A stretch of DNA of 64,000 bases from Cyanidioschyzon merolae (Eukaryota). The stretch lies in the NCBI GenBank assembly GCA_000091205.1, contig AP006500.2; one strand, written 5' to 3'. Positions within the stretch are counted from its first letter, which is position 1. Each line of letters starts with the position of its first letter. The notes beneath the pieces were generated by a model. That model searched no databases. It was not told the DNA's origin and worked only from the letters and a program-made list of their open reading frames with translations. This document shows positions 720 to 60,741 of this stretch, in pieces. The position numbers and the translations under genes are program-made.

Positions 720-3700
720 TACGCGAGCCACCTTCCGAAGCTGCATCTTCGTCTCCCATGCCGATGACATGGAGATGGATCGGTGAATCGGCAGCGCATC
801 CGGGGGCCTTCAACCGCTCGCAGTGCGCTATCAAACAGAAACTGCGGATCACGCACGACGTGTTCGATTCATGTTTTCGTCGTGTATGCGATGTGGCGAC
901 GCTGCTATCGTGTCGTGACGCGTCTAACAGGAACGCGTGTCCAGTCGATGAAAGTTTCCGCATTGGGCAGAGCGCGCTGGCGGGCGATCTCCGTTGCATG
1001 ACCCTCGTTTGCACCGACTTGGTATACGGATCTGGATGCAACTGTTCGGCCATGCTTGATGCGGTGATTTCGATTCCCCATGCCCAGACTCGCGTTAATG
1101 AAGCGGGAAAGTGAGAACGCCTCTTTCCGGCAAATCGGCGGATGATTCCGGGAGAATGGAGTGAGACAGTTTTCCCTGGAGTGACCGTTGCGGGCAGTCG
1201 TTTGCAGGCCAACGTACGTGCTGTGCGAGTCCTCGTGGGCGTCGTTTTTTATCCTGATGAATCGAGGTGACGATATACTTCAGGTACTGGGGACAGCGAA
1301 TGTCAAGAGCACCTCGGCAGCAGCTGCTCTTGGACCATACTCGGTAGTTTCCAAAAACGGAACAATGATATCGTTCTCCAGTAGGCCTGGAAACCCGTTC
1401 GCGGTGTATGCGTACAGTGTACCAGCTCTGGTGGACTCCTGAATGGTACCATACGTGTGCCTCGTCCCAGGTGGGAACAAACGCCCGCCTGTACTAGGCA
1501 CAGATTTTTGCATCAAAAGTCTTCCTCGATTCAGCACAACGCACATTCGGGGTAGCAAACGATTCTCTCAAAGGTTCGCTCGATACAAAGCTTCTGGACG
1601 CTCCAATAGCGCGATTCATTTCCGCATGTTGATCGCGGCGCCCAAGTCTCGGTGCAGAAAGCGCCTGCGCGCATTGCGACTGGTATTAGAATCACGTCAT
1701 CGCAAACCTGTTACAAGCGATTGCCTCGCGAGCTGACGTTCGGTCAGCATACCGTATACCAACTCGGTCAACCGGCTCTGTTTCATTGTCTGCGTCTGGG
1801 CCTGCTTCAGCGAGAACCTGTGCTCGTGTTGCGTGTATGCCGTCCTCAGCGCATCGATGGGCATAGTACAGAATCGATTTCTCCATTCGTAATCGGCTCT
1901 CGTTGAAGATGCAAGCGTGCAGGCCCTGCGCGCTACAGCAAGTCTAGCGCGATGCACGGCCATAAAACTAGGCGGCTGGTCGGTCATAGCCCTTTCCAAC
2001 ACGTGGGAAAATGCTGGCGAATGAACGTATCATACCCCTGTACAACCGCAGCAGCTGGCGACCCCAGCGCGAACGCATGTACTCCTGCCAAAGATCGTCT
2101 GTGTGGGTCGTTCCGACGCTCGTGTACGATCTGAACGAACGGAATGTGGGATCCCTTCCTGTCCAATACGACGCTCAGTGCGTCAAGAATGGGGCCCCGG
2201 CGCTGTCACTCGGCGCGGTGGTGTGCCCGCTGACCACCATGACCATCATTATCACCACGCCCGATTCCCGATGATGCCGAACCCTGGAAAAATTAAGCAA
2301 CTTCATCTGCTTTTCGTAGAGGTATTTGGTGTCATCCTTTTGATAATGAGTCATTGCGATCACCATGATGTTTTCCAAAGCCCGGGTCGAAACTCATTCC
2401 CAAGTCTGGGACCTCATCCACCTCGCTGCGTGGAAAATGAGTATCGCTGCTGGACGCTGGCACGGAATTCACATGCTGCATGCAGATGATCACGCGGGAG
2501 GTCCCCGTGGTCGCTGTGAACTTCTATCCATATCCACGCTGTAAACGAGACGCCTCGGACGAGCTCCCGCGATGCACTTTGCAACCTTGTTCCAATAGTT
2601 CATACTCGCTTGCAGGGACGAGATGCTTCTTTGTCTTCTTTTTTCTTCACGAGTTGGAATGGGTTTGGTCGCTGTACTCTATTCTCGTTTCCTCCTTGGG
2701 ATTCAGACGGACTTGCTCCACGCTGAAACTGACACTAGCCTCTTCTATGTAAATATCCACTATTCCTCAAGAATCTTTTTGTCATGTTTTAAGCAGCGAG
2801 CGCGCTCACGGGCTGAAGCGCGCTTTCCGTCTCGTCCCAGCGTACAGGAAGAGGAGCAACAGAGCCGTTCAGGGCTGCTCAAGGCTGGGAGCCACTTGTC
2901 GATGAAGCTCAGTGGCACAGATGCGAGAGACTTGCCTATCGATCCGTGAGCATAGCCATAGCGGTTCACAACAATGAAGACGACTCCAACTGCATGGTGC
3001 CGGTGAGTATAGGCTTGTACGAAGACGAGCTCGACACGAATCACAACTGCCTTCTCATCGACTGCTATTAACCGCTGGAAAATGGGGTTTTCTAACAGAA
3101 GAGCAGAAGCGTATGGGATCGCAACACCTCGAGGAGTTCTTCAACGAAGGTTGCGATGTAGAGCGCTCCTGTCAGTTTGGCGACTTGTGGCCGACCATGC
3201 GACTGAATCGCACCCGGGGCTGACGATGACGTCACTGCCACTTGTCTCTATTTTACGACCTGCGATTTGTCGCTCTTTGAGAATCCAAATGCTGGTCTAC
3301 CATTGCTCCCGAATACAGTCTCAGCAGGCGAGACGAGCACCCGTTTCTCATGCGAGAGAGTTTTGCGGTTCCGTACGACATCGATCGTGCGCTGTTCAAC
3401 GCAAGACCATCGCTCAGAGAACCGCGCATTTCCCCCCAGTCCATCGGTGTCTCTTCATCACCGCTCGTATGACCAGGACGGAAATTTCACATCCTCTGGA
3501 TTGTTTCGTAGTATTTTATCTGAGAACATCTGGAACGGAATGGACTGTCGATGAGGAGGTCGTTTAATTAGAGTTTGATACGTTCGGTTTTGGGCACTCA
3601 TTGTTCAGGATACCGACCAATAGAGTGGTGATTCATTCACCTGCTGACCCTGGAATATCTGGCTCAGACCATTGCAACCCATTTTCCGAAAACGGCCTGT

Positions 3701-4031
3701 GACGGCATAATTCCTTTCCGCGACCTTTCTCCCATCTACAGAAAACATGTCGTCACTTGAATACCTGCGAGAAAAAATCAAACCAAAACAACAAGGCGTC
3801 CTAGTACAGGTATTCTGGAACTCACCGTCCTGAGTATATCGGCATTGCACAAGATCGGGGCGCTGTCGTTGGAAAAATGTCAATGTCCGTCTTGGCACTG
3901 GAATCAGCTCGACAGAAATCGAGCTTGGCTCGCCTGCTGCGTCGGAGCCAGCAGCGAATAAATATGAAAATGCCCGAAAAGGCATCCCAGGTTGCGGGTC
4001 GTTTGTTGCCACTTTCGCTTCGAGCTGATCT

Positions 4032-5339
4032 CTATCGGATTCGCGTGACGCTGCCAGAGACACGCAAGGTCGCAGCGAGTCTTGCGCGCGTAATCGCTCC
4101 AGCGCTCTCCTTACTCGCTCGCGAGGACCTGGTTTCAACTTCAGTGTTCGGCTGCTCGGGACGTAGATTCTCTGTACAGATGTCGAACGAGAGCAGGTTG
4201 CTGACGTCCTCCTTGATGAATATTTCAGTTTCGCTTGGTTCGACGCCGCCGAAACTCTGCGCAACCTCGCGTAGTCGCTCAGCTTTATCTTTCAGAGCGG
4301 GCAAACGATGGAGCAGTTCAGACATAAGTTTCCGTACCGTCTCAACGCGTTGGAGGACTTGCTCCTCAAGCGCTCGTTTTCTCCCGTCCGACAGTTCAGT
4401 ATCAGACTCATTGTCTGATACCAGGTCCTCGAACTGCGCGTTGGAGAATACTGCCTCGGCCTGTAACGCAGTCACCTGCTGGGCGAGTCGCTCGGCCTGT
4501 GCTCTGACCAACTGTTCGGCTGTGGCACAGCGTTCCGCTCGTAACCGCCGCAAGTATTTCTCCTTCTCAATAATAAGGGCCTCGAGCGTTTTCACTTTTC
4601 CACGAATCTCATTGTCTTCTTCTTCTTCCGGAAAGGACGCCTGAACTTGAGCGAAAACTACACAGTTCTTACGCAAGAGCTCTTCAAGGGCCGCAGCTGT
4701 CGCACGCAACTGTTCTCGTACCGCCTCGCGACGGCTTTCTGGAAGTAAGTAGCTTTCTCGAACGCTGGGTTGCAGTGCTTCATCAACAGCGTCATTAAAG
4801 CACTTTACTGCCTCGGTGATGACCGACTCGCTGGGCAGCACGACGTGAGGCTCTCGCAGGTAGGGCGCGGTCTCCATAAGCACCGGGTTCGTAGTCAGCG
4901 CCGGGAATTCAAATACGGCGTAGAGACCGCGCGCATCGCCTGCGCGTGCCGCACATCGCGATGCAGCGATGCAGCGATGCGAGGCGTCTGCACGAGCGCC
5001 ACGTACAGACGCGCCTAGCACCGCAAGCCTGGTGGACCTCTGTTCCCGCCACAACGACTTTTCTGGAGCCTGTTGAACGTCGTGAGCTTGGGAGAGGAGC
5101 GGAATTCTCTTCCCCGGGCTAGTGATCAGTATCGACGCTCCGGAGACTCTACTTGGATGGATCGGTCTCATACCAAAAGAATGCGCTGACGTTGCTTCGC
5201 GTGCAGTGCGCTGCAGTGGCGTGCCGCTGGACTGCTTCGATTGGCAGGCGCGTTCCGTGGATGCGCGTCCTGAAGAGGTCGCACGATCTGTCTTCTGGTT
5301 CTCGTGGAAATGCACATTTGGAACTGGTGGGACGCTCAC
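4032..5339 (-). CDS. hypothetical coiled-coil protein (no recognisable domain)
   Basis: 435-aa ORF with long heptad-like E/R/L/A-rich stretches (EEQVLQRVETVRKLMSELLHRLPALKDKAERLRE and similar) and an S/T-rich N-terminus. Supported by length only. The antisense ORFs 3605..4264 and 3877..4644 overlap it and are treated as spurious. Confidence 0.4.
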   Translation of the reverse strand: MSVPPVPNVHFHENQKTDRATSSGRASTERACQSKQSSGTPLQRTAREATSAHSFGMRPIHPSRVSGASILITSPGKRIPLLSQAHDVQQAPEKSLWREQRSTRLAVLGASVRGARADASHRCIAASRCAARAGDARGLYAVFEFPALTTNPVLMETAPYLREPHVVLPSESVITEAVKCFNDAVDEALQPSVRESYLLPESRREAVREQLRATAAALEELLRKNCVVFAQVQASFPEEEEDNEIRGKVKTLEALIIEKEKYLRRLRAERCATAEQLVRAQAERLAQQVTALQAEAVFSNAQFEDLVSDNESDTELSDGRKRALEEQVLQRVETVRKLMSELLHRLPALKDKAERLREVAQSFGGVEPSETEIFIKEDVSNLLSFDICTENLRPEQPNTEVETRSSRASKESAGAITRARLAATLRVSGSVTRIR

Positions 5340-6774
5340 TGTACTGTGGAGGAACTGAATCCACGTCTGTCGTGTTCAGCGGTGGTGCATCATCCAGAAG
5401 AGTCCGGTAAGGCTCACAGACTTTGCACCGAGAAAAATGGCGATGCGGGCTGCCAACGTGCCCTTGACGTTGTTTTCGGATGGATTTGTTTATCTGGAAT
5501 CACCGGAGTTCGCGAACGCCGCTGGCTGCGTTGATGTTTCATTCGCATACGGGTCCCGCAGACGTTGCTACGTTGTGCCAACTCCTGCGCTGTGCGCTCC
5601 TCACGAAATCGATATCCGATCGATCTAGTGACCCTGCGGGCACACCTGTATGAGGGAACCGATGCTTGATCGCCTCTTGAAGCATCACCCGCTTTAGATG
5701 TACAAAGGTAAACGTAACATGGGCCTCAAGTGTGCCACATGCGATGACCAGGTCTCCGTTGGGACATGATACATTGGCATTGTGACGCGCTTCTTGTCTT
5801 CTTACGATCTGCGGTTGTCTTCGAAATAAGAAGCAATGATCGTTGCTTTACATCTCCAGGTGGGTGCATAAAAGCTCGGGAGCATGACGTCTCATCGAAT
5901 CACAAAAGATCAGAGCCACCATCGTGGTTTCATCTCTCAAGAACTGAAGTCCGTGCATCCCGTTCTCGGTCCAAATACCATAAACACTCCGTTACTGAAA
6001 CGAGATCCTGATCTATCGCTAAAGAGAAGCTGAAGCGCCGTTTCAGATTCGGATGTTGGCGCGCTCGACTGCGTCTTCGCTCGCCCATACACTGCCCGGT
6101 AGAATGGGAGCTCGCAATGCAGCATGATATCGCATGAGGCGATTCGAGCTTTTTTGGAAAAAAGCAGCGTATCTCTTACGGGATCAAGACATGCGGCAGC
6201 GCATTCCTTCCGAGCTGACGGCGCTCGATCGCGTCAACCACGACTCTATTGACTTGTAGTAGCACCAACGCTCGGGCGGCTGATCGGGTTTAGCTGCTCC
6301 AAGGACGCCCGGGCGGTCGCTCGTGGCGTTCCAATAGTTCCCGTAGACAGAATTATCAAGCAGCGCTATCGTTTTAGAAGACGTTCTCCCAGCGTTCGAT
6401 CGTGAGTACATGTTCATGCGAAAAGCCGCCCAGCCGTCGGCCCGCTGCATCCCAAGAGCTCAATGCATGCGTGCGCCTGCGTTTCCGGGTAGGGTTCTTC
6501 CCTATATTTGTAGGTCTGTTCTGATTGATACATTAATGTGCAGATAACGGATTGCCCCAGTGACCCGTTCGCACTCGCGTCGTGTTCGCAACAAGGCTTG
6601 CGCGTAAAGCAGGTACTCGCTCCTCCTCAGTAAGCCGGATCGAGTCGGGCTCACCGAGTAGTAGACGCCAAAACGCCGTACTGCGACCGCTTTAGAGTTG
6701 GCTCTGGTATAGACTCCGCATTACCCGCAGAGATCCCGCTAGCACCTCTATCGGTAGGCACAGGCGCTTCAATT

Positions 6775-9390
6775 ATGAACCGAAAACGCTACCGCTTTGA
6801 AGCCGGCAAGACAACAGACCCGGACGAGACACCGACAGCGACTGGCGCAGAGCGGAGCGCGAAGACAGTCCTGCGCTCCCTCGTGAAGCAACTGCTGCCG
6901 CCTCAAGGCAAACCCCAAAGGAAGCATCGCCAGCGCGACGCCTCGAAAGCATCCGGTCTGGAGGGCAAGTACTCGCCTTCTCGCCGAAAGCGCGATGGAG
7001 ACGGGGACGCTGCCTCACGGGTAGAGCGCGCCTATGCGGCGATGCAGCGGCGCCTCCAGGCAGCACAAAAGTCATCAAAGCGAAAGGCAGGGCGCTTGCC
7101 AGTGCGAGATCCCATTTCCGGAACTTGGCTTGTTCCCGGAACGGATAGTGTCTCAGAACGAGGTGCTACCTCGAATGGTCACCCGCAGACAGTGCGTCTC
7201 GTGCGACCCGGTGCCCGCCTCCGCTCACCGATCCAAGAGGTCGCAGAAAGCCCGCAACACACCGCCCCCATGCATAATGTCATCCGCCGTGCTTCCGACT
7301 CGCCGCAGCGGGACACGCTACAAGCTGACCGAGACCACAAGGACGACATGCATACAACGGAAGCTGACGCGAGCGATGAGGCGATTGCTGTATGTCCGGA
7401 GACACGACGTGCTTTCGGACGAGATGCGGCATCCGCATTCGAAACGCTGGCACCCAAACAGCATAGCTTTATAGTTTTGATTGCAGGAACGTGCGCGGCA
7501 ATCGCCGAAAATCCCGAACAAGAGACGGGAAAGCTTCAGTCCCTGCCCTCATTGCTGCGTGAACTGGACCGTTTCCAACGTGCTGTGCGCACCAGTCCCA
7601 GTGGGACGGCCTGGAGCGCGCACGCGACCCTCCTATGCATACGATCCCTCACAGAACTCTTTTTGGATATTTGTCCCGGGTATCAGATTCGAATCCCGAG
7701 CGAACCTAAGGACGGTGTTCGGCTAAGTAAGACTGTAAGGAAGCTTCGCAAATATGAATCAGTGCTGCTGCAAGCCTATGCGAGTTTTATCCGATGGCTC
7801 AGGAAACATCTTGAGGGCGCAGGCAGATGCCCCGATACCGCCCACAGCGCAGTCGATGGAATGCTGCGGCAGACGTGCCTGCAATCTTGTCAGGAATTAC
7901 TGCTTCAGCTCTGCCATTTTAACCATGCAGAGGACTTGGTCGAGATGCTCGTGTCGCAGTTCGGCACCGACGCGGCAACTGATGAAGTACTCGTGGCGAC
8001 TGCCAGCGAACTTATGGAGCTCTTTGAAAGCTCTACGGGCTCGAGTTTGCGGACGGCGGTTCGACTGGTTCGAGCCCTTTGCCGGCGCCTTCGAGACGAA
8101 GGGATCCGTGCACCAGCGGCAATTGTGGAACCGCTGCTAAAGGTTCCCCTGGAAGCGCTTCATGCGGCCCCGAAAAAGAAGCGCCATCAGCAGCATGCGG
8201 ACGGCGGAAACACTGCACATCCGCTGAGCCGTCGGAAGAAAGCGCGCATGCAACACGGAGCGCTACGTCAGTGGATGGAGGAGAAGCAACGCTTGGACCG
8301 CCAAGTCGATGAACAGCTTTCCCGGGATATCCACGACCTAGAAGCGGAATCCACACCGGAGGAGATGAACTGGGCGAGACGCCAAGTCATGGCAGCGCTG
8401 TCGCAGGCGTATGCGCAGTGTTTACTGCAGCTGGAGCAGGCGTTGCAGTCACAGACGAATACAGGTGATACGGCAATCCCGCCGGGGAAAAATGAGAGGT
8501 CGCGGTCACCTGGGGACAAGGTGACGCCACAGACAAAACTTCGGGACAGGCGCGCGCGCTTGAAGCGGCTCAACAACTTGCTGCCACGAATCGCTGAAGG
8601 TCTTGGGCAGATTGCGCTCTACTTGAACGCCAAGCTCTTGAACGACCTGCTTTTGACCATGTATCGCATCATAGACGCCGCATTCGCCGCGGACACGGAG
8701 GCGCAATCATTGCTGGGCCTCCTGCGCTGCGTGCGTGCCGCGTACCAGATCATCATTGCACAGCAGATCGCAACACAGAACGCCGATCCAACGTACCTGG
8801 ACGGCATCCTCTTTCGATGCATGAATCCGACAGGCGTCGTAGTCAAGCTCCCGCCAGATTGCCGTGCCTCCTGGCACCGTGAACTCACTGCAGCGGTGGA
8901 TTTCGGATTGCTGGGCTCGCGGCGAACGCTCCCGATTCGCCGCGGAGCAGCGTTCTGGATGCGACTCTTAGAGTGCGCGCTTCATGCGACGGACACATCA
9001 TGGGCATGCTTGTACGTACGCAAGGCGGAATCCCTGGTGGAACGGTATCCGGTGCTGCGAACCTGGCTTGCATCAGCGATGACCGTGGAAGAAACCGACA
9101 CCAACACCGACACTGATCGAACGATCCTTGCAGCTCCAATAGGCCTGCTGCCCAGCACGCCCCGAGCGCTATCCGATCATCACTGGGACGCGCTCGCCGC
9201 CGATCCCGATATCGTAGGCGCTATGCTGCTCGCCGATCAAGCGGTGGTGGCGATCGATGCACACGGCACGCGCGTGCGTGTTCGGGATTTGTGTGCGGCG
9301 CCAGCGCTGGGGCCGCACACGCAGCGCGGTGCAGCGTCGATTGCCCAGGCGCTGCTGCAACGCCTGCGTGCACCGCTTCCCGCGATCTAG
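6775..9390 (+). CDS. NOC3-like nucleolar complex-associated protein (Noc3p N-terminal plus CBF/Mak21-type C-terminal region), tentative
   Basis: 871-aa uninterrupted ORF with a basic K/R-rich N-terminus typical of nucleolar proteins. The segment LRKYESVLLQAYASFIRWL resembles the conserved NOC3 'LRKYE..L...Y..F' region, and the C-terminal helical region (LLPRIAEGLGQIALYLN...LLLTMYRII) resembles CBF. The family assignment is from memory and not computed. Confidence 0.6.
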   Translation: MNRKRYRFEAGKTTDPDETPTATGAERSAKTVLRSLVKQLLPPQGKPQRKHRQRDASKASGLEGKYSPSRRKRDGDGDAASRVERAYAAMQRRLQAAQKSSKRKAGRLPVRDPISGTWLVPGTDSVSERGATSNGHPQTVRLVRPGARLRSPIQEVAESPQHTAPMHNVIRRASDSPQRDTLQADRDHKDDMHTTEADASDEAIAVCPETRRAFGRDAASAFETLAPKQHSFIVLIAGTCAAIAENPEQETGKLQSLPSLLRELDRFQRAVRTSPSGTAWSAHATLLCIRSLTELFLDICPGYQIRIPSEPKDGVRLSKTVRKLRKYESVLLQAYASFIRWLRKHLEGAGRCPDTAHSAVDGMLRQTCLQSCQELLLQLCHFNHAEDLVEMLVSQFGTDAATDEVLVATASELMELFESSTGSSLRTAVRLVRALCRRLRDEGIRAPAAIVEPLLKVPLEALHAAPKKKRHQQHADGGNTAHPLSRRKKARMQHGALRQWMEEKQRLDRQVDEQLSRDIHDLEAESTPEEMNWARRQVMAALSQAYAQCLLQLEQALQSQTNTGDTAIPPGKNERSRSPGDKVTPQTKLRDRRARLKRLNNLLPRIAEGLGQIALYLNAKLLNDLLLTMYRIIDAAFAADTEAQSLLGLLRCVRAAYQIIIAQQIATQNADPTYLDGILFRCMNPTGVVVKLPPDCRASWHRELTAAVDFGLLGSRRTLPIRRGAAFWMRLLECALHATDTSWACLYVRKAESLVERYPVLRTWLASAMTVEETDTNTDTDRTILAAPIGLLPSTPRALSDHHWDALAADPDIVGAMLLADQAVVAIDAHGTRVRVRDLCAAPALGPHTQRGAASIAQALLQRLRAPLPAI

Positions 9391-39643: not shown

Positions 39644-40117
39644 TCTGACGTCGGCAGAATCCGGAACGTCTCCAGAACGCGCCACTGGTACCCGTGGCGA
39701 CAACAGCGGCAGAGCAGGTGCGCTCTTGTGCAGACTGTTCAGTACCGCGGTCGCGATGCTACCGCTGGCGCTAGCCACAGGGTACCCATGTTCATTGAAT
39801 GGAATGAGGGCTTGCGGGCAGTCCTGGCGCCAACTGCCTGCAATCCGCAATGTCGGCTTCGTGCGCACGTATGTCACTTCATGTGCACGGCACGCATGCG
39901 GCCTATCGGCAGACGCGCGTTCTCTGTAGCGGCTCGCTGCCTCCGAAATCTAAAGCCCATGTTTTAGTTTACCTCAAATGATACATAGCTGTCGAGAATG
40001 CTGCGTACCGGAAACATCCAAGTACCTGGAGCGAAAGTCACGGAGCACGTCTTGCATCCCAGTGGCAACCTGGAAGCGTCAACTCCCAGGGGAAAAACCA
40101 CCACACGGGGCACACAC

Positions 40118-40400
40118 CATCACCGCCTTTCGAAAGTCGAACGGCAGCAGTGTACAGTAGTGGCGGCAACCGCGCCCTAGACGAAACGTCTCCAACCGAC
40201 GTGCAGACGCCTCCCGGTTTTTCTCGACCGAGCACCCACTACTGCTTCCAACTTCTTTTCATATAGTTCCACTTTGAAAGGTTATCCAATAAAGTTCTCT
40301 CTTGTCGACTCTGGAGGTCTCTTCTCCAGCACCGCACATTTCCTTATATTGATAGCGGCATTAAAGTCTCGGTTCACGAATTCCATCCGTTTCTTGCTAT
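40118..40400 (-). ncRNA. candidate omegaRNA / right-end region of the Fanzor-like element (prediction only)
   Basis: The ~164 nt non-coding stretch 3' of the stop (40118..40281) is about 85% identical to 54601..54786. Both copies end at the same point with catcacc, where similarity to flank ends. A subterminal hairpin ttcga-aag-tcgaa lies at 40124..40142; in the second copy it is cgttcga-aag-tcgaacg. In TnpB/Fanzor systems the guide RNA overlaps the ORF 3' end and reads through this terminus. Confidence 0.3.
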
Positions 40401-42540
40401 CACTTGTTGTACTAACCAATGCAAGTAGCCCTCGCACTTTTGCCCTCCTCTCCATTTGCTCCTCCGTCAGCGGTCCGTACTTTGCTATTTCCTCAGGATT
40501 CCGCTGGCACTTTTCCATCCCGACCCTTCGAAGTGTACACCCCAGCTCGTGGTGTGTATAGGACGTTCGGAACTCATCCACAGGTATCGTAAAGAGACGC
40601 CTTGCGCACTCTTTGTACGCTCTCGTCGTTGGAGCTGGCGTAGTTCCTTTTAGGGTCTTCCATCGCCCTGCACCGTACGCTACTACGAGCCTCTGATTTT
40701 CATTCTCCTTGAGCGCGCTCAACTGATTGAAAAAGTTGGCGAACGCCCGCTGCCTCCCACCGTATAGATGCATACACAGACGAGCCCACCGGGGCTTGGT
40801 ATACTCCTCCCACAGCGCATCCCAATGGGCAACACGAACTCCCATGGATTTCCGGAAAGCTTCAAAGTCGGCTCCTCGGCTCGTCACCTCGCTCAACGCT
40901 TCCAGGTGATCCTTCATTCCTGAATTCCAAGTCTCGATTTCCTTCCTCGCATTCATGATTGCCGATTCTCGATAGTATCTCGCTCTCGAGAATCTCAACA
41001 GACGCATATCTTTCTGACGTAAGTTGCCGTCAGTACCATCTTCCGCACGCTTCGGTGCTGCGACGGCTATAATATTCGTATTTCCAGGGTCCGCGCCAAC
41101 GATAAAGTCGTTATCCTGCACTTTCTGCTTCTCAGAGCCCGCCTTGTTGTTTTCTTCATGCTTCGTCGCGTCTACGACAAGGTCGTTATCCTGCACTTTC
41201 TGTGTGGCAGGATCCGCATCCTTCTCATCTCCATGCTTCGTCACGTCAACGATAAAGTCGTTATCCTCCACCTCCTGCGTCGCAGGACCCGCCCCTTTGT
41301 TTTCTTCATGCTTCGCCGCGTCAACGATAAGGTCGTTGTCCTGCACCTCCTGCATCACAGGATCCGCCTCCTTGTTTTCTTCATGCTTCGTCACGAGCGC
41401 AGCCAAGGGCGGAACTGGACGATCTTTCTTCAACCGCCAATAGCGTATACACAAGGCTACTCCATCGGTTTCGATCAACCCAATGAATACCTTCTTCTTG
41501 CTCACTTTGAGACGTTTGAAATCGAAGATGCTCATCCAGTACGTCTCCCGGTTTTCGCCGGTGAAGTCCTCCCTGCTAAAATCGAACTCGGGACTGATCT
41601 CCCTCATGACGCCATGAAGGATTCTGGAGTCGATAGTCACAAAATGTGACTTGATGTTGCCCAACGGAACCACGTTGAAGCGCTTCCCCATTAGGAAAGC
41701 CTTCCGTCTCTCCCACTCTTCATTTGTCTCTTCACTCAGCATCACCTCTGCCTTGCGTTCGATGTCACGATCCAGAAACACGAAATACCGCAGGACGAGG
41801 CGATAGTATCTTTCCTTCTCTTTTTTCAACGCTAATATCTTGTCTGTTGGATTCACCAGCCCCAGTCCCGCACGATCCTCTTGTATAACCGCACGGATCG
41901 TAGAGGCTTCATTGGTGCTCACCTTTGACGTCGTCTTGTCGACAAATTCGACCTCATCTTCACGCTTGCGATCTTTCATGATGCCATTGATAATCGCCCA
42001 TTTCCCATTGCGAGAGATGCCCGAGTAGAGTGCAATCACAGCGCGTCTCATGAAACGTTCGAGGTTCACTGTCAAATGGTTCTTCAGATTCGTGATGTAC
42101 TTCATGGGCCTATATGTGTAAATATCCCGGTCACCCTTGTATCGAGTACCATTGAGGCTGTAAAAGGGATGTTTTTCGTGGAAGACATCCACCCGCTCAT
42201 TTTCCTCCCGCGCTTCCTCTGTACCAAGCGTCAGCTGACGAATAAAAATCTTGTCGAAAAACACGTGTGGAATCTCGACCGTTTCGATGGGCGTCACGTC
42301 GCGATACATCTCCCTCTCCAAATGCATCAGTCCTGACGACGCCTTGAAAATACTCTTGGAGTACGAGTCCACACGTTTTTTGATAGCGTCTCGCAACTTT
42401 TCCTTGTAGGGATCCTTGATATGTCCAAGAAGAAAGGTTTTCACAACCATCTCGTCGTACAGTTGTCTTTCTTGCCGCCTTCGACGTAGGGTATCCCCCT
42501 TTCGGTTCTTCTTCTCTTCCTTTTCTTCTGGACTAGACAC
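40282..42540 (-). CDS. Fanzor-like protein (eukaryotic TnpB/OrfB homolog; putative RNA-guided RuvC endonuclease), intact 752-aa ORF
   Basis: RuvC-I-like [19 protein letters not shown] (Asp codon at about 41089..41091). C-terminal Zn-ribbon-like segment [20 protein letters not shown]. RuvC-III-like [10 protein letters not shown] (RDxNAAxNI-type; Asp at about 40366..40368). Basic NLS-like N-terminus [17 protein letters not shown]. The RuvC-II Glu is not at the canonical position ([10 protein letters not shown]), a rearrangement also reported for Fanzor1. Two further fragments of the same family occur in this window. Confidence 0.8.
41085..41385 (-). repeat. 4x tandem 75-bp in-frame repeat inside the Fanzor-like ORF
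   Basis: Protein repeats: [102 protein letters not shown]. The repeat is also obvious at nucleotide level (gtcaacgataaagtcgttatcctgcac...ttcttcatgcttcg). The last unit carries the real RuvC-I motif. Confidence 0.85.
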
Positions 42541-42739
42541 TGTTTTTTGTTTTTTCTGGCAGCCAGCGACACTGGGCCTCCAGGATCGTCGATTTGCTTT
42601 TTCATAACTTTCCTTTTTTTAGTTTTTTTGGAAAAGAACGCTCCCTCAACGCCTCTGATATAAACAGCGAAAGAAAACTTGAAAAAACTAAACTGAGGGT
42701 TGAAATATAACTGAACTGAAAAGTATACTCTGCTGTGAC

Positions 42740-44137
42740 TTTAACGCAAATACAACGTGCACTTGAGAGCAACACGCTCAAGATCGCGATCCCGTTTCCC
42801 TTCAACAACGACATGCGCGTCGTATTTCATGCCTCCCAGATATGGAGGTGCGCGTATCGACCGCGATGCCCCCTGGCACTCGGACGTGAACTCCAAATAC
42901 CCTCAATAGAAGCATTAGCAGCAGGCTGCCGGGCACGCATATGGGCCAAAGGGCCCGCCATGCGCACCTGGTTCAGTCGGATTTTCATGCAGACCCCAAC
43001 GCACCGCAAGAACTCTTGGACGAAATCGACGCAGATTTGGCTGAAGCGCCTCTTAGGCGAAAACATTCTCCCCAATCGTTCCCCAGAAATATAGAAGGCT
43101 CCCGCCGCCTGAAGCGAACGGTCCAAACAACAGTACGGGAATGTAGACATGCAGTCAGTCGCGCGAGTAACGCCGGCTTGACTCTATACCGGAACTACAG
43201 CCTAGCCTGTTCATGCACGTACTGGTGGGAGGCGCTGGAGTTCACGGGACTTGCTCGAGGTACACAGTGGCTCGCCAAAATCCGCGTTGGTGGCTTCTGG
43301 CTACCAGCACCGGCTCTAAGCCGTATAGGAACACTGGAATCGCACTGGGAATCACACTGTCCCTGCTATCGAGACGAAATCCCCGAGACCCTGACATATG
43401 TAGGCGTACAGTGCCCGCGCTGGAAGCAGGAGCGCAGCGAGCTCCTTGAAGGACAGCAGCAGCTGGGCATCACCGTGATAGTCGAAGGCCGGACACTCAC
43501 TCTGAGTGTAGCACTGGCAACTGATGGTCCGCTAACCGAGCATCAGCGCTCATCAATGGCGAACAAACGCATATGCTACCTTCTAGGTGGAAGATCCAGC
43601 GGATCGGATGCGCACACGGGCTCAGTGCGCTCTCTGCGCCTACCTTCTGTGGTAGGTTTCAAGCACAAACCCGCATTGCCAACCGACAACAACGCATTCC
43701 ATGCATGATCACGAAGGAGAGAGGCGGCTCCCAGGATATATCCTAACAGCCAAGTTTCTCCAGCGTGTCGTGCAGCGAAGGCAAGCCTGCATCCGCAGAC
43801 TGTCCAAGCACAAACTGACGACGAGGCCCGATTCTACTTCAGGTGAAGTACGCCTCGAGCCGATGCCCTCTGGGGTATAGAAAAGCAGTTCTAGCTCTAT
43901 GAACTATCTGATCCAGCGGTACAGGTCCAAAGGTGGATACGGAAAGGCAGGTACTAGGCACACTCGATAGGACGTATGAAACGACCAGAACATCCGAGAT
44001 GAAGTATATGTACTGTAACTTGGAGGTAGGGTGTTTGATAGATACCTCACCGCGCTCTGAAAAAATATAAAGTAAGAAAAGAAAAATGCGCATAATCGGA
44101 GAACGCTGGCCCAAGTAAACGTCTTGTCAATGAAAAA
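42740..44137 (+). mobile_element. 5'-truncated LINE-like element; 3' UTR ends in a short A-run at about 44125..44131
   Basis: The ORF2 C-terminal fragment is followed by a ~430-bp 3' region. Its last ~250 bp (43880..44137) are found again, inverted, at 54845..55045 (catcaaacgccctacctccaag and tttttcttttcttac blocks), as expected for independent 5'-truncated copies. Confidence 0.5.
42941..43708 (+). pseudogene. non-LTR retrotransposon (LINE) ORF2 C-terminal fragment
   Basis: Contains the cysteine-rich C-terminal motif typical of LINE ORF2: HCPCYRDEIPETLTYVGVQCPRWKQERSEL (C-x-C...E-T...C-P...R). There is no RT core upstream in frame, so it is 5' truncated or frameshifted. Confidence 0.5.
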
Positions 44138-44181
44138 AACCCGCGCCGCCTGGCCGAGATTCATTGATTTTAGTCAGGGCG

Positions 44182-45612
44182 CTACTCGTATCGATAGGTT
44201 CGCTGTAGACGCTCGTGGAGCACCTGCGCTGCGGTGCGCGCGTTCAGTTCATCAACTATGGTTTCATCTAGCGGATGCACGAAGAGCGCTACGGAGAAGC
44301 GTTCTGCCGAATAACGAGCACCGCCTGGGCGGCCTGACAGTTTGGTTGCGTCGTTGCGTGCCGTCTGCTCCGGGCGAGCCACAACGCGGTGCTTTGTTGA
44401 TGAGATCCTGCCTCTGGTCCAGATGGAGAGTACGTCACCTGCATTAAACACGAGTCCCGGGGCACGCGTTGGATCGTGCTCAATGTCCACCCAGTGATCT
44501 CCGATCTTGAGCTGGAGACCACCAACTTCATCCTGGTAAAGCAGGGTGAACGTGCCATAGTCACTATGTGCTCCGGCGAGTACGATTTCGGAGGTTCTCT
44601 CGTTTGAGGTACCGCATGTTGCATGTGGCACCTGTGTTAGCGGAACTGGTGGGTAATGCAGCAGCCTCAGCGTCGTGGCGAGCACGGAGGGTGCTTTGTT
44701 TTCTTCGGGAGGGCCGCGCTCTCCCCGAGCGATGCCTGGTGGTAGCATAGCGCAGTCCAAGGCCAGATTCCGGGAGTCGCTATCCGAAATCTCTCGTATT
44801 TCGCAACCCCGATCAATGGTAGTATGTCCAGCTAGAGCAGGTTGTTTCATGCAGACTCGCAGGTCCGGCGAGACGGTGCCTTTGCTCGTTTGCGTCCGCG
44901 TCTCACGATCGCCTCCTGGCGCTGCCGGAATTTGTTCTTGACACGTCGAAAGCCGCATCATTTCCCCACGCTCCAGCGAACAGCGGGCACCAGCGTCAGG
45001 TGAGTGCTCATGCACCTTCATCAAGGGTGCTGCACTCCGAGCGCCTGTGTCCTCGGAACGCGTGCATCGCGACAAGTCGGGACAGGCGCAACGGTGCTCG
45101 GGTGTATGTCCAGCAGCAAGGTCTACGAATGCATGCGCCCTGCAAAACACCGTAGCAATGGGACCGCAGCCATGTCGCTCAAGCGCTGTGCCCAATCGTT
45201 GCACGAGAAGTGGTACTAACCTACGCAGAACAACACGATCGAAAGCGCGTTTCGCTGAAAGCAGACTGTGCGACAGCGATGCCTCCAACGGCTCGACTCG
45301 TGCCCCGTAGACGAAGTTCAGCGCTTCCTTTGGATCCGAGAGACCCGACTCGGGTGCCAGTGCTTCCACACCAACAGCTACGTATCCCGCGTTAGGAGCC
45401 AACCAGTTGCCGCGAGCGAGTTTGCTCCTGTCCGCTGCTGTTAGTTGACGAAAAAATTCTCGTGCCGCGTCAAGCACACTTTGAAACGCTTCGGTATATA
45501 CGGTCTCATCAGCGACAATATATGCAAAGCCCACTCCCTGTAACGCCTCGTACAAAGATGCACCACTCACGTCTCGCTCTACGTTGACTAGCGGAAGCCG
45601 GAGCTGCATCAA
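44182..45612 (-). CDS. 2-oxoglutarate/Fe(II)-dependent oxygenase (isopenicillin-N-synthase-like superfamily) with a long internal low-complexity insertion
   Basis: DIOX_N-like N-terminus (GFAYIVADETVY...REFFRQLTAADRSKLARG). 2OG-FeII_Oxy core GAHSDYGTFTLLYQDEVGGLQLKIGDHWVDIEHDPTRAPGLVFNAGDVLSIWTRGRISSTKHRVV with the HxD...H...RxS pattern. Confidence 0.8.
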   Translation of the reverse strand: MMQLRLPLVNVERDVSGASLYEALQGVGFAYIVADETVYTEAFQSVLDAAREFFRQLTAADRSKLARGNWLAPNAGYVAVGVEALAPESGLSDPKEALNFVYGARVEPLEASLSHSLLSAKRAFDRVVLRRLVPLLVQRLGTALERHGCGPIATVFCRAHAFVDLAAGHTPEHRCACPDLSRCTRSEDTGARSAAPLMKVHEHSPDAGARCSLERGEMMRLSTCQEQIPAAPGGDRETRTQTSKGTVSPDLRVCMKQPALAGHTTIDRGCEIREISDSDSRNLALDCAMLPPGIARGERGPPEENKAPSVLATTLRLLHYPPVPLTQVPHATCGTSNERTSEIVLAGAHSDYGTFTLLYQDEVGGLQLKIGDHWVDIEHDPTRAPGLVFNAGDVLSIWTRGRISSTKHRVVARPEQTARNDATKLSGRPGGARYSAERFSVALFVHPLDETIVDELNARTAAQVLHERLQRTYRYE

Positions 45613-48504
45613 CAGCCGACCCGTAAACTCGTACCTGTCGTTGTCTTGCTGGGTATTGCGTAGAGCAGCGCGTGCCTCTCAGTCGCAACCTCTACACCTC
45701 TATACCTGTGGCCAGATCGGCGACACCAAAAACTCTCTCTGAAGCAGCTTTCAGGTGCTGCTTAAGCCTCCGTCCAGCGAATCGCGGCTGTGGAGCCTTT
45801 CGAGCACCAATTCTCATTGACGGAATCTCTGAATGAGATATATCGCTACAGTGCCAACGTTTGCGCACTCGCGTAGCGCTGTGTGCAGCTTGGCTTGCAG
45901 GTGAGGGTGCAGGTTTGTGTGCGTTTCCTTCGCTACGTCAAGGTAGTTGGTGTGTTGTATTTTGGAGAATACAAAAGCCATTGTGCTCTGCAGCTGGTGA
46001 GGATCGAAGCACTTCACCAGCTGGCACTCGTACAACGACTTTTTCCCACAGCATTTGTCGTGTTCCAAGAAAAGCTCTCGTGTACTTATAGACTACAGCA
46101 GCTGCGACTTTGGCGTGCTACAAGTTCGCAGTGCTGTGAGCACTCTTCGTGCTAACCCCGACTGGTGCGATTTCCGTAGAAAGCAGCGCTCGCACTCGCG
46201 TCTTGCGTGGCCGGGAAACGCATTCGTATGTCTTTGGACTGGCCGCCTGATATCCAGTTGTACCGCCACTTAGCCGCTCAGTCTGGTGTTCTTCTAGGGG
46301 ACTACATCTTGCTGCGGTTGCAAATTCAGGAAAGCAGCGGCTTTCTGGGTCGTGATCCGCACGCCGAACAAACTGTTGAAGAGGCGGTGCATCTGTGGGA
46401 GCGCTTGGAGAAATCCGTCGTGCTCTTGGGCCAGATAGTCGACAACGTTCATGGGGAAAGCACTCTGAAAGAGTCCCTGGTATTGGATCTTCGCAGCAAA
46501 CACAGTATTCTTGTCAACCTGAACCGTCTCTGGGACGATCCGCACCCTCAAGAGTGTGCACGGGTTCTACTGGAAGCGTGGAGCGGCTCCCTGTGGCTCG
46601 ATCCCGTCGCGAGCATTCTCTCTTCGTATCGTAGTTTGGTTGAGTCTGCCGACCGCGTATCTACGCCGCAGCGTTCAAAACGCCTAACCGCACCAACAAC
46701 ACCTTCTGCGAGAGCATCGGCATCCGACCTGAATGATTCGTCGAAACAGGCACCGCTGTGGAGTTACCTCCTGGACGACCATGGAACACGTCGTCGATCT
46801 GGCTCTCGAGCGCACCGGCCTTAAAACATCGTCGGCGTGAGAGAAGCAAAAGGTTGAGCGGCTCAAAAGCATCGAATCTGGTGGACACTTGCGCATTCAC
46901 TTCCCACAGTATGCGTTTGCATGCCGCAGGCGCCGCTGCAACAGTCAGAACTCGCATTTTTGCAGCCGCGTAATCGCTTCCATTTGGCGAATCCAACTTG
47001 ATTGTACCGGAAACCGGCACAGACCTGATTAGACCAGTGAACCTTGAAGATATCGTTCGTCGGAAGCCAGCATTTGCATCGCGATTCGTGTGGGAATGTG
47101 TTTGCTCATTCGCTGGCTCGATCATTCCAGTTAGAACAACGGCAACGACAACAACAGAAGTAGCCCCTGGCTTCTCATGGTATTGGTGATGGCAACGCAG
47201 ACACCGGATGCCGAGCTGCTTTCGCGCACAGTGTTCGTCGAAACGTGTTCCCTCGGCAACGGGACGACAAACGTCGTATCCCCAGGATGGTTGGAGCGTG
47301 ATGTCAGACTTACACGTTTCGTGCACAACTATGGTTTCCACAAAACAGCCCCCAGAACGAAGCAGAAGCCCTCGTCGATTCCGACTGCTCGCGCCTCTCC
47401 AATCGTCTGGTCGATGTGAACCCCACGTGTCACATCAAGATCCATGATATCGCAGGAGGCTCGTCTGCACTGTACGAGACGGCCTCCTCTGTGAGCTACC
47501 GCTGATCTCTGGGAACGAGTAGAACGCGTTCGAACAACATCGCGATAACGAGTAGCGGAGCTCGTTCCAAGCTGCTCGTATATAACGAAGAAATGCAAAG
47601 CAGTTTACGCGGACGAGAGAGTCCCGCGGAGTATCGGTCTGGATGCACTGTGTGTAAACGAGGACACATATCCAAGAGTCGTGCAGCGATGCTCATTTCC
47701 AACCGTTCAACGTAGGTCATGAGAGAGGCTTCGTGAGGCGCGTGAATCTCGCTTTGCAAGGCGTCATCGCTGTCGAAGCACTTCCACATCAGGAAGATGG
47801 AGCCAAATACCTAAACGGAAACCAGATGAAGCTGTTCGACTCTCACAGGCTCTGCTTCATCGAGAGTCGAACGTGATGATCGCCAGGATCGTTACGAAAA
47901 TGGAATAAAAGCGTTAGTGCCCGTCTTATCGTTCCAAGCGTCCTGTCGAGCAGCAAGGAAACGCGCTGCGCGCAACATTCAAAGCAAACATGAGCGTCCT
48001 AATGACTCAGACCGACGATTCCTGGGAAGCGTACATGAGGCTGCGCTGCTGTCGCCAACATATTCGGTCTCACGGAGGCAAGAGGCATGCATTCGCTAAC
48101 ATGCTCAATGATGCGGTTCACGACTTGTTCGGCAACCTATAACAGGGCGAAGTTCTCGCGACCGATGGGATGGCAAGCTGTGCGTCGCGCCAGTGGGGCA
48201 TGGCGTCCAAGCAACTGGGACCCATAGAATGTGCTTCGAATCTTGCACAGTATCAATGGAAAAACAGAAGCGCTTCATGAATCAGTCAGCAAAGGAGTAC
48301 CGCATTCGGATCTCCTCGCATCAGAATCGACTCCTTTCACCCCGCACACCAGTGAAACCCTGCGGTGCAGTGCTCGGGACTTAGCCGAGCCAGAAACCCC
48401 AACTCTTTGCTGTAAGACCTCACTGGCAATGTGCATATGCTGCATCTTGCGGGTCTCTGCATGATGCCGTCCCCGATACATGGAACAGATTGGTTAGCTT
48501 CTCT

Positions 48505-54600: not shown

Positions 54601-54845
54601 CATCACCACCGCCGTTCGAAAGTCGAACGACAGCAGTGTGCAGTCGTGGCGACCGGCGCCCTAGACGAAACGTCTCCAACTGACGTGCAGACGCCTCCCC
54701 GTCTTTTTGGACCGGCCACCTTCTACTGCTTCCAACTTCTTCTCATATAGTTCGACTTTGAGAGGTTGTCCAACAAAGTTCTCTCTTGTCAGCTCTGGAG
54801 GTCTTCTCTCCAGCACCGCACATCTCCTGATACTGATTTTTTTCC
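54601..54845 (-). mobile_element. solo 3' end of a Fanzor-like element (copy 2): last ~28 codons plus non-coding right end
   Basis: About 85% nucleotide identity with 40118..40362 in the same orientation. The stop codon of copy 1 (TAA) is CAA here. Similarity stops abruptly at about 54845, where a LINE 3' end begins. Confidence 0.65.
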
Positions 54846-55045
54846 ATTGACAAAATGTTTACTTAGGCCAGCGTCCTCCGATTCTGCGCATTTTTCTTTT
54901 CTTACTTTTTTTTCAGTGCGCGGTAAGGTATCCATCAAACGCCCTACCTCCAAGTCATATTCCCTATACTTCGTCTCGGATATTCTGGACGTTTCATACG
55001 TCCTACCGTGTGTGCCTAGTGCCTGCCGAGAGCGATAGCAATGGC
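54845..55045 (-). mobile_element. 5'-truncated LINE 3' end fragment, minus orientation, A-run at 54848..54854 abutting the Fanzor fragment
   Basis: The plus strand matches the reverse complement of 43880..44137: gtttacttaggccagcgtcctccgattctgcgcatttttcttttcttac...catcaaacgccctacctccaag...gtgtgcctagtgcctgcc. Confidence 0.55.
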
Positions 55046-56275
55046 GCCTGTAGCCCCGGTGCGGTCGCTGCACGGAGACAGAACGGCGTTGCCGTACCAC
55101 ACAGAGGGCGTCTGCCCGAGGAAATTGCGGTGAGGACGAGATTCCAACTCGCGCGCTCAAAGAGCATATCCTTGGCAGGCACACCCGTTAACCATGGCGG
55201 TACTTCTGGTGCAGAGGTATCTCCGGCACCTCACCGGTAATCCCCTAGGAAATCCGATAGTTTGGCGATTCTCCTTCCTAAATTTTCGGTAATTTGTATT
55301 GTGTGCCAAGTGCACGAGCCTATCTCAAACCAAATGGATTCGGCTCTGGCTCGAATCCATGACGGTCGAGGGTTCCATCAGTTAGCAGTTCGGATGTTCT
55401 TCTTATTTGTTAGCATTCGTGATGCTAAAGTGGAAAGGCGTCGTGTTCTACGATGATGTGGAAAATGCTTTGCTTGTTCCGATGCCTATTTGCGCGGATC
55501 GTATCCAGCGGAATTTGGCAGGGATGCATAGAGTCTATATCGAGTGAACAAGTCTGCCGCTCGCCCGGTGAACGCCCGCCATCGAGTGATTGCCTTTGTG
55601 CGGAAACCATGGGCCGGCATTTTTCAGCCCATGGGATACGGGCACTCCGCAGAGTTTCAAGTCAGCTGCTGGCTACGCGCGCACGCAGTTCACCCTGGAC
55701 ACAGTCGAGACGACGACGCCCCATGCGGTGACGGACGGGGCGCTCGACAAGGTTTAAAAACGGTGCAGACCGCATGAGGTTTCATACGGACAAACTTTGG
55801 AGAATACAGCACGAAAAAGTCCCCAGAGCAGTGTCGTTCAAACAAGCCGAGCCTTTCCTGGGTGTACTCGTTCAGAAACGGTGCGTCCCAGCGCGTGCTC
55901 ACTCCCTACCCGCTTCCTCGCACGATCAGCCAGCTGTTGCTCCAGAGGCGGCACTGCGCAGATTTTTCCATCATTTTCAGAACTTTGATTGCCACTGTTT
56001 CACAAATGCGCAGAAACCAGCACTCGTAAAGCGCCACTTCGTTGCCATCGCTTCTGCACTTGAGCCCCTACTGCGCTGCAGAGTGGATGCCGGACGGCGC
56101 GGTGAGACGCGGAGCGCGCGTAAAGTACATAGTTCGATGATCAACTACGTTCTTTCATCAAGGCCAACAGTCAACTTCGCTGGTTTCCGGTCTAACTGTT
56201 TCTGAGTGCTGTTCAGAGCGATCATCCCTTGGGTAGCAGGAACTCGAGCAGTTCCCGAAATACAAGCCCTGGACG

Positions 56276-60292: not shown

Positions 60293-60640
60293 TTGATTTT
60301 CAAAATTAAAGACCCTAAGGCATGCGCCGAGTGTACAGTTCAGAACATCGTTATGGAGAGCAGGCAGCGGAGTGCTGAGGACATAGAAAAGCACGGAGAG
60401 CTGCCGGAGCACCAAACGGCACAGAGGGCGCGAGTTCTTGGACTCCTCGCACTGACCAGTTCAACCAATCGCAAGAAACACATTGAGTTCATGAACTGAG
60501 ACTTTACCGCCGCCATCAATATCAGGAGATGTGCGGCACTGAAGAAGAGACCCGCGGAGCTGATGCGAGCCAGCCTTGTCGGACAACCTCTCAGTGTCGA
60601 GGTGTATAGGAAAAAGCTGAGGCTGATAACAGACAGCCGG
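60293..60640 (+). pseudogene. diverged, frameshifted C-terminal fragment of a second Fanzor-like gene (copy 3)
   Basis: CAECTVQNIVMESRQRSAEDIEKHGELPEHQTAQRARVLGLLALTSSTNRKKHIEFMN is about 50% identical to the copy-1 segment [57 protein letters not shown]. After a stop and frameshift the RuvC-III box reappears as DFTAAINIRRCAAL. The downstream block gggaggcgtctgcaagtcgg matches the copy-1 non-coding block gggaggcgtctgcacgtcgg. Confidence 0.55.
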
Positions 60641-60741
60641 TCGAAAAAAAGCTGGGAGGCGTCTGCAAGTCGGTGTATGTATGTGCTCTATGATCGCGAA
60701 ACGTTTTATGCCCACCGAGAGGAGTAACGCAGCGTGACTGC

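Follow-up and report, generated by a model that had tools for sequence, protein, structure and literature searches.

A probable dead LINE retrocopy joined head-to-head to a CMe-1A-type Fanzor1 core in Cyanidioschyzon merolae

On contig AP006500.2 of Cyanidioschyzon merolae (assembly GCA_000091205.1), the 3′ portion of a long interspersed nuclear element (LINE) abuts an element encoding the RNA-guided nuclease Fanzor1. The stretch analyzed, 64,000 nucleotides in length, is referred to as the window, and all coordinates are those of the window unless stated otherwise. The segment at 42869–44139 (plus strand) is most probably (we put the probability at about 0.8) a dead LINE retrocopy set head-to-head against the core of a CMe-1A-type Fanzor1 element, which it meets at the outer 5′ end of that core. 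Sequence comparison identifies this segment as the 5′-truncated end of a LINE family whose anatomy can be reconstructed, finds the junction with the Fanzor core again at other loci, and assigns a LINE origin to TE-N2, the repeat that forms the corresponding arm of the published CMe-1A consensus. An earlier reading of the DNA from its letters and open reading frames (ORFs), here called the sequence-only reading, had proposed a LINE fragment beginning at 42740; the fragment actually starts at 42869, and 42740–42868 is part of the Fanzor element.

The LINE copy is 1,271 bp long and corresponds to positions 3010–4280 of the family consensus, to which it is 93.2% identical with 10 indel columns in a global alignment (92.5% over 1,276 columns by blastn). 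This divergence is uniform across the whole copy, and identity to the metagenome locus L004 (3102–4252) is 86%. Only the last ~30% of the element is retained, as expected from the 5′ truncation that had been proposed, and the endonuclease and reverse transcriptase (RT) are missing. At its 5′ side, 42869–43066 (plus strand) is a remnant of ORF2 from the region downstream of the RT (PLALGRELQIPSIEALAAGCRARIWAKGP...LLGEN), still in its ancestral frame; this is the frame of ORF 42735–43094, and it agrees with that of the proteins P0038, P0015 and P0028 as well as with the consensus. The 255-amino-acid ORF at 42941–43708 (plus strand), which the sequence-only reading took for LINE ORF2 coding sequence, consists mostly of the ORF2 C-terminal region, as judged from protein homologs and alignment to the consensus. 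The attribution holds for that C-terminal region and fails for the first ~43 codons, which lie outside the ancestral frame: a +2 insertion at 43066–67 shifts the ORF2 frame, and a second +2 insertion at 43627–28 alters the C-terminus. The zinc motif on which the attribution had been based is present as a degenerate Cys/His knuckle, HCPCYRDEIPETLTYVGVQCPRWKQER, at 43355–43435 (plus strand). In the alignment, the family consensus at this position reads HCPCCGDETPETLT(Y/H)LGLQCPRWKQER, which is of the C-x(1-2)-C...H-x4-C type known downstream of LINE RTs; the window copy has Tyr at the His position (Y/H in the consensus) and has lost the third Cys. Downstream lie the 3′ untranslated region (UTR; 43709–44132, plus strand), whose last ~190 bp are common to a second LINE copy in the window, and an A7 tail at 44133–44139 (plus strand), so that the copy terminates in ...TTGTCAATG-A7, in line with the short A-run noted earlier. 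Homology to every other copy stops exactly at the end of this tail. Lacking endonuclease and RT and carrying two +2 frameshifts, the window copy is predicted to be unable to move or to encode a protein.

No Pfam family was matched by ORF 42941–43708 or its neighboring ORFs, so the identification rests on homology to RT-bearing copies. A protein search with this ORF returned 39 database relatives at 68–100% identity, all from metagenome assemblies, and several of the homologs (P0036, P0039, P0028 and P0015) extend upstream into an RVT_1 RT containing an LLFADDVVLLA (FADD) box. The intact 255-codon frame and the existence of several database proteins of equal length are features that a host gene with a zinc-binding domain would also display. 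We give that explanation practically no weight: the homologs are all dispersed repeat copies, 68–92% identical and set in different flanks, many of them are frameshifted or fused to RT fragments, and the start of the ORF is an out-of-frame segment created by the +2 insertion, in an ORF for which there is no Pfam match.

The profile search and the search for full-length relatives envisaged in the sequence-only reading are more informative at the level of the family. An ORF2 query stitched from the longer copy L004 recovered 80 related loci in one metagenome scan, and a consensus was built from 19 copies among them. In this consensus, which is 4.27 kb in length, an A-rich 5′ leader (...ACAACAAAACAAACTAGTCACAAACTATTTATT) precedes a single long reading frame, and the element closes with a ~470-bp 3′ UTR that terminates in ...GTAAACGTTTTGTCAATG followed by 4–11 A. 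The consensus ORF2 still carries two frameshifts; in stitched form it matches RVT_1 with E=8.5e-29 in Pfam, and the FADD, KAFD and SPLLF motifs are present. The ~550-bp leader yielded no ORF1, and self-comparison of the consensus revealed no terminal repeats, that is, neither long terminal repeats (LTRs) nor terminal inverted repeats (TIRs). The apurinic/apyrimidinic endonuclease (APE) is kept in one locus, L048, as a 725-bp segment (6713–7438 of that locus) situated at the deletion point of the 4.27-kb form (consensus ~771). This segment matches PF03372 (Exo_endo_phos; 2.2e-8, 34.6 bits against a cut-off of 24.5) and PF14529 (Exo_endo_phos_2; 2.2e-6, 28 bits against 27.4), and in the 4.27-kb form the APE domain is reduced to its first few residues (...IGFASWNICGIAS). 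L048 is the sole sampled locus with APE, and the remaining full-length copies carry one common deletion together with the two ORF2 frameshifts; loci L011 and L039 represent two 5′-truncated lineages derived from the APE-bearing form. By its sequence features the family is a non-LTR retrotransposon of the APE type, and the autonomous LINE is predicted to be ~5.0 kb in length (APE-RT-Cys/His), most sampled copies being an APE-deletion derivative. The amplified 4.27-kb form looks non-autonomous. The APE-less consensus had also suggested an endonuclease-less LINE that exploits breaks made by Fanzor, an idea that was dropped on the evidence of L048, L011 and L039. The statement that non-LTR retrotransposons are present in this genome is borne out by the RT-bearing relatives among the 80 loci and by the second truncated copy in the window.

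The affiliation of the family is suggested by several weak similarities. The best solved relative of the consensus ORF2 is human L1 ORF2p (E=3e-19), in an alignment that begins past the endonuclease (EN) domain, and the RTs of L1 and R2 are the top matches in the PDB (71.6 bits for L1 ORF2p and 65.9 bits for R2). The nearest database proteins combine PF14529 with PF00078 at 24–29% identity. Among them are turtle and bird elements (24–25%), which are taken as CR1-like and give a hint of the clade that is not decisive; plant L1 scores only 44 bits, below the turtle and bird elements.

Copies of the family have 5′ ends scattered along the element, a common 3′ end and unrelated flanks. The 41 LINE 3′ junctions represent 23 distinct flanks, all of which follow ...GTCAATG-A(4-11). 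In 18 of these 23 flanks the A-run is immediately followed by T; 10 begin with the triplet TCG (p=3e-11), and 14 with either TCG or TGC, a pattern that points to a nick preference of the LINE endonuclease for A|TCG or A|TGC. Copies probably arise by target-primed reverse transcription, with the endonuclease nicking the target at such a motif; synthesis would start at the A-tail and often halt early, leaving 5′-truncated copies with one common 3′ end. The 5′ flanks of full-length copies in L018, L010, L035 and L024 resemble the LINE 3′ terminus (for example, CAATGAAAAG, CTATGGAAAAAG and CTTGTCAAAAAAAAA), and these may be tail-to-head arrangements or a terminal direct repeat.

The partner of the LINE copy is the core of a CMe-1A-type Fanzor1 element at 40115–42868 (minus strand), as delimited by its match to the CMe-1A consensus and by comparison of ends across copies, and within it lies a 752-amino-acid Fanzor ORF (40282–42540, minus strand). 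The CMe-1A consensus (3,169 bp) was taken from the supplement of Bao and Jurka (2013; PMC3627910). Its positions 648–3145 align to window 42865–40142 with 85–89% DNA identity over ~2.5 kb, and the window Fanzor protein is 71% identical to the CMe-1A protein; on these matches the unit at 40115–42868 belongs to the published C. merolae CMe-1A family. That family has ~150 copies in C. merolae, no TIRs, target-site duplications (TSDs) that are not determinable and a classification given as unknown (PMC3627910), and the failure of the sequence-only reading to find a TIR is in line with that account. The core abuts the LINE with its outer 5′ end, ...CATCGCGGTCGATACGCG, and carries a hairpin, TTCGA-CTT-TCGAA, at its 3′ end. 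Subterminal hairpins occur at both ends of the core, and Helitron-like or IS200/605-like ends were considered; they were rejected for want of TC...CTRR termini or a consistent flanking motif.

Some further features of the Fanzor copy can be described here. The N-terminus of the CMe-1 consensus protein, MEKEVEDPGGPVSPAAGKK..., has its window counterpart, MKKQIDDPGGPVSLAARKNKK, at 42441–42605 (minus strand, with the ATG at 42605), in a different frame from the Fanzor ORF, which implies a frameshift near the start of the window Fanzor copy. Within the ORF, at 41092–41395, there are about four tandem 75-bp repeats (...KHEENK.A.P..QEV.DND.IVD...), ~80–84% mutually identical; the CMe-1A consensus contains one unit, and the expansion is also found in several metagenome copies. 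Many copies continue past the 3′ end published for CMe-1A (...TTTTGAAAGGCG) with a further ~15–25 nt that are semi-conserved and G/T-rich (...GGTGGTGTGTGC). This extension is seen at window 40095–40125 and in L018, L029, L067, L073 and L098, with the TTCGA-CTT-TCGAA hairpin just inside, and it may be that the true Fanzor 3′ end lies farther out than the published one, or that a guide region or a preferred flank does.

The 5′ 635 bp of CMe-1A were described as a separate repeat, TE-N2_CMe (PMC3627910). In the consensus, this arm occupies positions 1–647 and meets the core at the same junction as the LINE in the window, within 3 nt. Homology of the window to CMe-1A stops at consensus 648, equivalent to window 42865; LINE consensus 3010–4280 follows instead, and the TE-N2 arm (635–647 bp) is missing from the window unit. 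The suspicion that the left end of the Fanzor element is either marked or hidden by the LINE fragment was therefore well placed, since CMe-1A continues for 647 bp past the point of the switch.

The arm itself resembles the LINE. When reverse-complemented, TE-N2 is collinear with LINE consensus ~3690–4275, including a 204-bp stretch that is 80% identical (E=3.5e-48), and the two share the terminal ...GTAAACGTTTTGTCA. TE-N2-like copies have outer ends that consist of short T-runs followed by unrelated flanks, together with variable inner ends, and one old copy is bounded by a decayed ~13-nt flanking repeat (GCATGCGTACACG / GCATGGATACGCAC). By this comparison TE-N2 is an old, inverted, 5′-truncated LINE 3′ end of the same lineage. 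An alternative derivation, in which the TE-N2-like repeat would be an internal-deletion derivative that keeps the LINE 5′ leader, was discarded after global alignment, which shows collinearity with the LINE 3′ ~590 bp only. The standard Fanzor unit of the CMe-1A lineage can accordingly be described as a core with an inverted LINE tail attached, the unit at 40115–44139 as that standard architecture with a longer and younger LINE tail, and the window LINE fragment as a replacement of the canonical LINE-derived left arm. The window copy matches only TE-N2 84–270, at 78%, as against 93% for the LINE consensus; because of this difference, the window junction would reflect its own event in which LINE cDNA was joined to the Fanzor core end, rather than inheritance of the older arm.

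The junction is not confined to the window. Four sequence groups have, at the same Fanzor-side breakpoint (within 3 nt), a junction with a complete LINE 5′ end (...GCGATG|CAAACTAGTC), and loci L029, L061, L067, L095 and L096 have a full LINE there with five different far flanks; two of the full-LINE junction loci come from a Fanzor-seeded sample that was selected without regard to LINE similarity. LINE A-tails in the opposite orientation also abut this breakpoint, in at least three junction types, and a further A-tail junction type lies 54 bp inside the Fanzor core. In L086 the core meets an unrelated flank at the same breakpoint. On the LINE side, the breakpoints at the core end fall at consensus 26, at ~3640–3690 (TE-N2) and at 3010 (window). 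Of the distinct LINE 3′ junctions, about one-third are in contact with a Fanzor element, against a background in which Fanzor elements are abundant (~5% of the C. merolae genome); for the reverse statistic, the share of Fanzor elements touching LINEs, the LINE-seeded sample is biased. A related arrangement is found in the 4,679-nt contigs L004 and L003, whose terminal inverted repeats (1–247 and 4433–4679, 98.8% identical) are two facing Fanzor-core ends around one LINE. This LINE lacks its 5′ side, which a deletion spanning the junction has removed, and it lies with its A-tail directly against the other Fanzor core.

A second fusion is present within the window itself. A 5′-truncated LINE copy of 284 bp at 54838–55121 (minus strand) corresponds to consensus 3990–4280 and has the 3′ end ...TTGTCAATGG-A7. 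Its A-tail is fused to a 237-bp Fanzor 3′-terminal fragment at 54601–54837 (minus strand), equivalent to window 40353–40115, which is 87% identical to 40115–40353 and 90.6% identical to CMe-1A 2934–3145. There is no Fanzor sequence beyond the LINE on the other side of this chimera. The 1.1-kb region around the second LINE copy is found with at least 99% identity in 7 independent assemblies, and L027 and L030/L035 share the junction of 54601–55121 but differ from one another in the flank that lies past the Fanzor 3′ end. In both size and position, the 237-bp Fanzor piece is what would be expected of the region for the Fanzor guide RNA, and the recurrent breakpoint at window 40353 may mark the 5′ end of that RNA.

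The recurrence of the breakpoint can be explained in more than one way. It is plausible, at somewhat less than even odds, that the Fanzor core is repeatedly targeted or broken at its end and that LINE cDNA has been joined there again and again in independent events, the arm being functionless. Either the sequence CA|TCGCG would fit the endonuclease preference, or a broken element end would be repaired by capture of LINE cDNA in either orientation. The A|TCG / A|TGC motif does fit both A-tail sites, ...CA|TCGCG at the core end and GCA|TGCCGCC 54 bp inside, and it accounts for the A-tail junctions but not for truncated 5′ ends that fall on one nucleotide. The occurrence of both orientations at one breakpoint, the variation of the LINE-side breakpoints and the share (about one-third) of LINE 3′ junctions that touch a Fanzor element are consistent with repeated joining, as is the fact that the LINE also joins Fanzor elements at 40353, 40495, ~41987 and ~42428. 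Yet LINE–Fanzor junctions are nearly always one-sided, the well-supported 54601–55121 chimera included, where simple insertion predicts otherwise, and the retention of the arm in ~150 C. merolae copies is left unexplained.

That the consensus of ~150 copies includes the LINE-derived arm implies that arm and core were amplified together, and it gives some encouragement to a more tentative proposal, in which the Fanzor element uses the LINE tail as one of its functional parts. An antisense RNA running from ~40115 through the core to 44139 would be copied in trans by the LINE RT, in the way that SINEs with LINE-derived tails are copied, and solo copies of TE-N2 would be 5′-truncated products or the parental tail element. 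The composite at 40115–44139 has a 3′ tail derived from the partner LINE and an A-run, and arms of TE-N2 type likewise end in a LINE tail and an A-run with unrelated flanks beyond. Composites of core and full LINE share one identical junction at several loci with different far flanks, and the lack of TIRs, determinable TSDs and a transposase in the CMe-1A family would be accommodated. Solo TE-N2-like copies, whose inner ends fall at ~300–640 bp, resemble a 5′-truncation series, and L076, which together with L070 is the only candidate for a truncated Fanzor-plus-LINE unit, resembles a composite truncated within the core. Against this, no TSD was found around the whole Fanzor-plus-LINE units in the window, L008 or L098, where there are only weak GC-rich similarities, and no antisense transcript is known. 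The existence of at least three LINE-side breakpoints for one Fanzor-side breakpoint would require repeated new fusions rather than a single inherited one, and neither the unrelated flank at the same breakpoint in L086 nor the oppositely oriented A-tails that abut it are expected. In the composites, the Fanzor parts are also more diverged (82–85% identity) than the LINE parts (88–92%), a gap that is uninterpretable, as it could be caused by collapse of repeats during assembly.

The quality of the assemblies bears on all of these comparisons. The comparison loci are mostly short-read metagenome contigs, at least one of which (L085) is chimeric across LINE copies, and the full-length LINE copies sit on contigs that are possibly chimeric. 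The Fanzor–LINE junction of the window is nonetheless recovered in two independent assemblies. L001, a JGI contig, is 99.7% identical to the window in a match that runs through 43785, and L085, an ENA k141 contig (1192–2466), is identical across the junction and onward into the LINE for ~400 bp, to ~43280, past which it switches to the LINE copy of L012 including the L012 flank. Could the adjacency of LINE and Fanzor be an artefact, a contig misjoined through a repeat? The change of LINE copy in L085, the mixed combinations of flanks shared by L010, L013 and L030, and the lack of independent assembly support for the 3′ junction of the window copy (44139/44140) would all be in keeping with such misjoining. 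We nevertheless regard it as very unlikely, given the agreement of L001 and L085 across the junction, the even divergence from the consensus along the fragment, and the same architecture in a consensus that was published from a finished genome.

Several observations weigh against reading 42869–44139 as an ordinary dead retrocopy. There is no clean TSD around the segment: the best candidate, ACCGCGATGCC (42860–42870) versus ACCCGCGCCGCC (44139–44150), agrees at ~9 of 12 bases, contains a gap, is GC-rich and is unconvincing. Three different LINE breakpoints meet one Fanzor nucleotide, and simple random insertion does not predict a shared nucleotide, so that some mechanism of greater specificity is probably involved. 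The unsupported 3′ junction counts here too, as does the composition of the sample: the chimeric L085 and the prevalence of short-read contigs make copy-specific conclusions drawn from long LINE segments weak, and all sampled LINE copies may be descended from defective masters.

The conservative interpretation of the segment as a LINE relic is kept as the principal one, and a functional link between the LINE and Fanzor is rated as rather improbable. It is similarly doubtful, although the consequences would be considerable, that CMe-1A-type Fanzor1 elements are mobilized via a LINE-derived tail on the opposite strand or, in a weaker form, that the core end is a specific site for the joining of LINE cDNA. 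If tail-mediated mobilization did occur, CMe-1A elements would be retroposons that depend on a LINE and bear the gene for an RNA-guided nuclease, and TE-N2_CMe would be nothing more than the LINE tail; in either form, an RNA-guided nuclease element would be physically and mechanistically tied to a retrotransposon, a tie that according to current literature has not been observed. A 2026 review noted LINEs near Fanzors but found no evidence of retrotransposons that encode one.

Elsewhere in the window there are other sequences related to Fanzor. These comprise a diverged C-terminal half at 1571–2372 (minus strand; 33–38% amino acid identity), a C-terminus with 3′ region at 60331–60674 (plus strand; 53% amino acid identity, and 76% DNA identity to CMe-1A 2747–3092) and a weak match at 47834–48109 (plus strand). 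On the far side of the LINE copy, an ORF for a 2OG-Fe(II) oxygenase (44182–45612, minus strand; Pfam 5e-16) has its stop codon 42 bp from the A-tail and contains a long low-similarity insert between its DIOX_N and 2OG-FeII_Oxy parts. An Rfam scan of the whole 64-kb window gave no match, and the window contains no C. merolae telomere repeat.

Taken alone, the fragment is routine: it is evidence of past activity of an APE-type LINE family in a compact, intron-poor genome, which is consistent with the C. merolae record. The genome of this hot-spring alga is gene-dense and intron-poor, with ~3-kb Fanzor-type repeats making up ~5% of it (PMC1955436), and 26 non-LTR elements have been reported there, encoding RT, ~4 kb in length and without LTRs (Nozaki et al., 2007; PMC1955436). 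The present family is alike in its RT, its ~4-kb length and its lack of LTRs, a likeness to these class I elements that is drawn from their description and not from their sequence. Of possibly greater importance is the context, in which the alignments show the LINE origin of the TE-N2 arm and the existence of relatives with a longer or complete LINE at the same junction. Since 2013 there has been no settled account of the spread of orphan Fanzor1 elements such as CMe-1A, and two testable hypotheses follow from these observations: LINE-dependent mobilization, or capture of LINE cDNA at the element end. They also call for caution in annotating the boundaries of Fanzor elements and the position of their guide RNAs.

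Compared with the published CMe-1A/TE-N2_CMe (PMC3627910), the window unit is alike in its core, its protein, its absence of TIRs and the side and orientation of its arm; it differs in that a younger LINE fragment of 1,271 bp takes the place of the 647-bp TE-N2 arm of the consensus. Bao and Jurka (2013; PMC3627910) left CMe-1A and TE-N2 unclassified, whereas TE-N2 is recognized here as an inverted LINE 3′ end. Human LINE-1 ORF2p (PDB 8sxt and 8c8j) has the same order of APE, linker/tower, RT and C-terminal Cys-rich segment, and LINE-1 is alike also in its A-tail, its 5′ truncation and its T/A-type nick preference. The similarity to LINE-1 ORF2p is nevertheless weak (E=3e-19, over the tower and RT), and the nick motif of the window LINE family is A|TCG as against TT|AAAA. 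Structural parallels are offered by short interspersed nuclear elements (SINEs) with LINE-derived 3′ tails and by U6-L1 chimeric retrocopies, in which non-LINE sequence is joined to a variably 5′-truncated LINE 3′ end with its tail and A-run, the breakpoint being fixed in one partner and variable in the LINE. Relative to these chimeras, the LINE has as its partner here a Fanzor core of 2.75 kb that encodes a protein and lies antisense, and the association is known here from DNA junctions alone.

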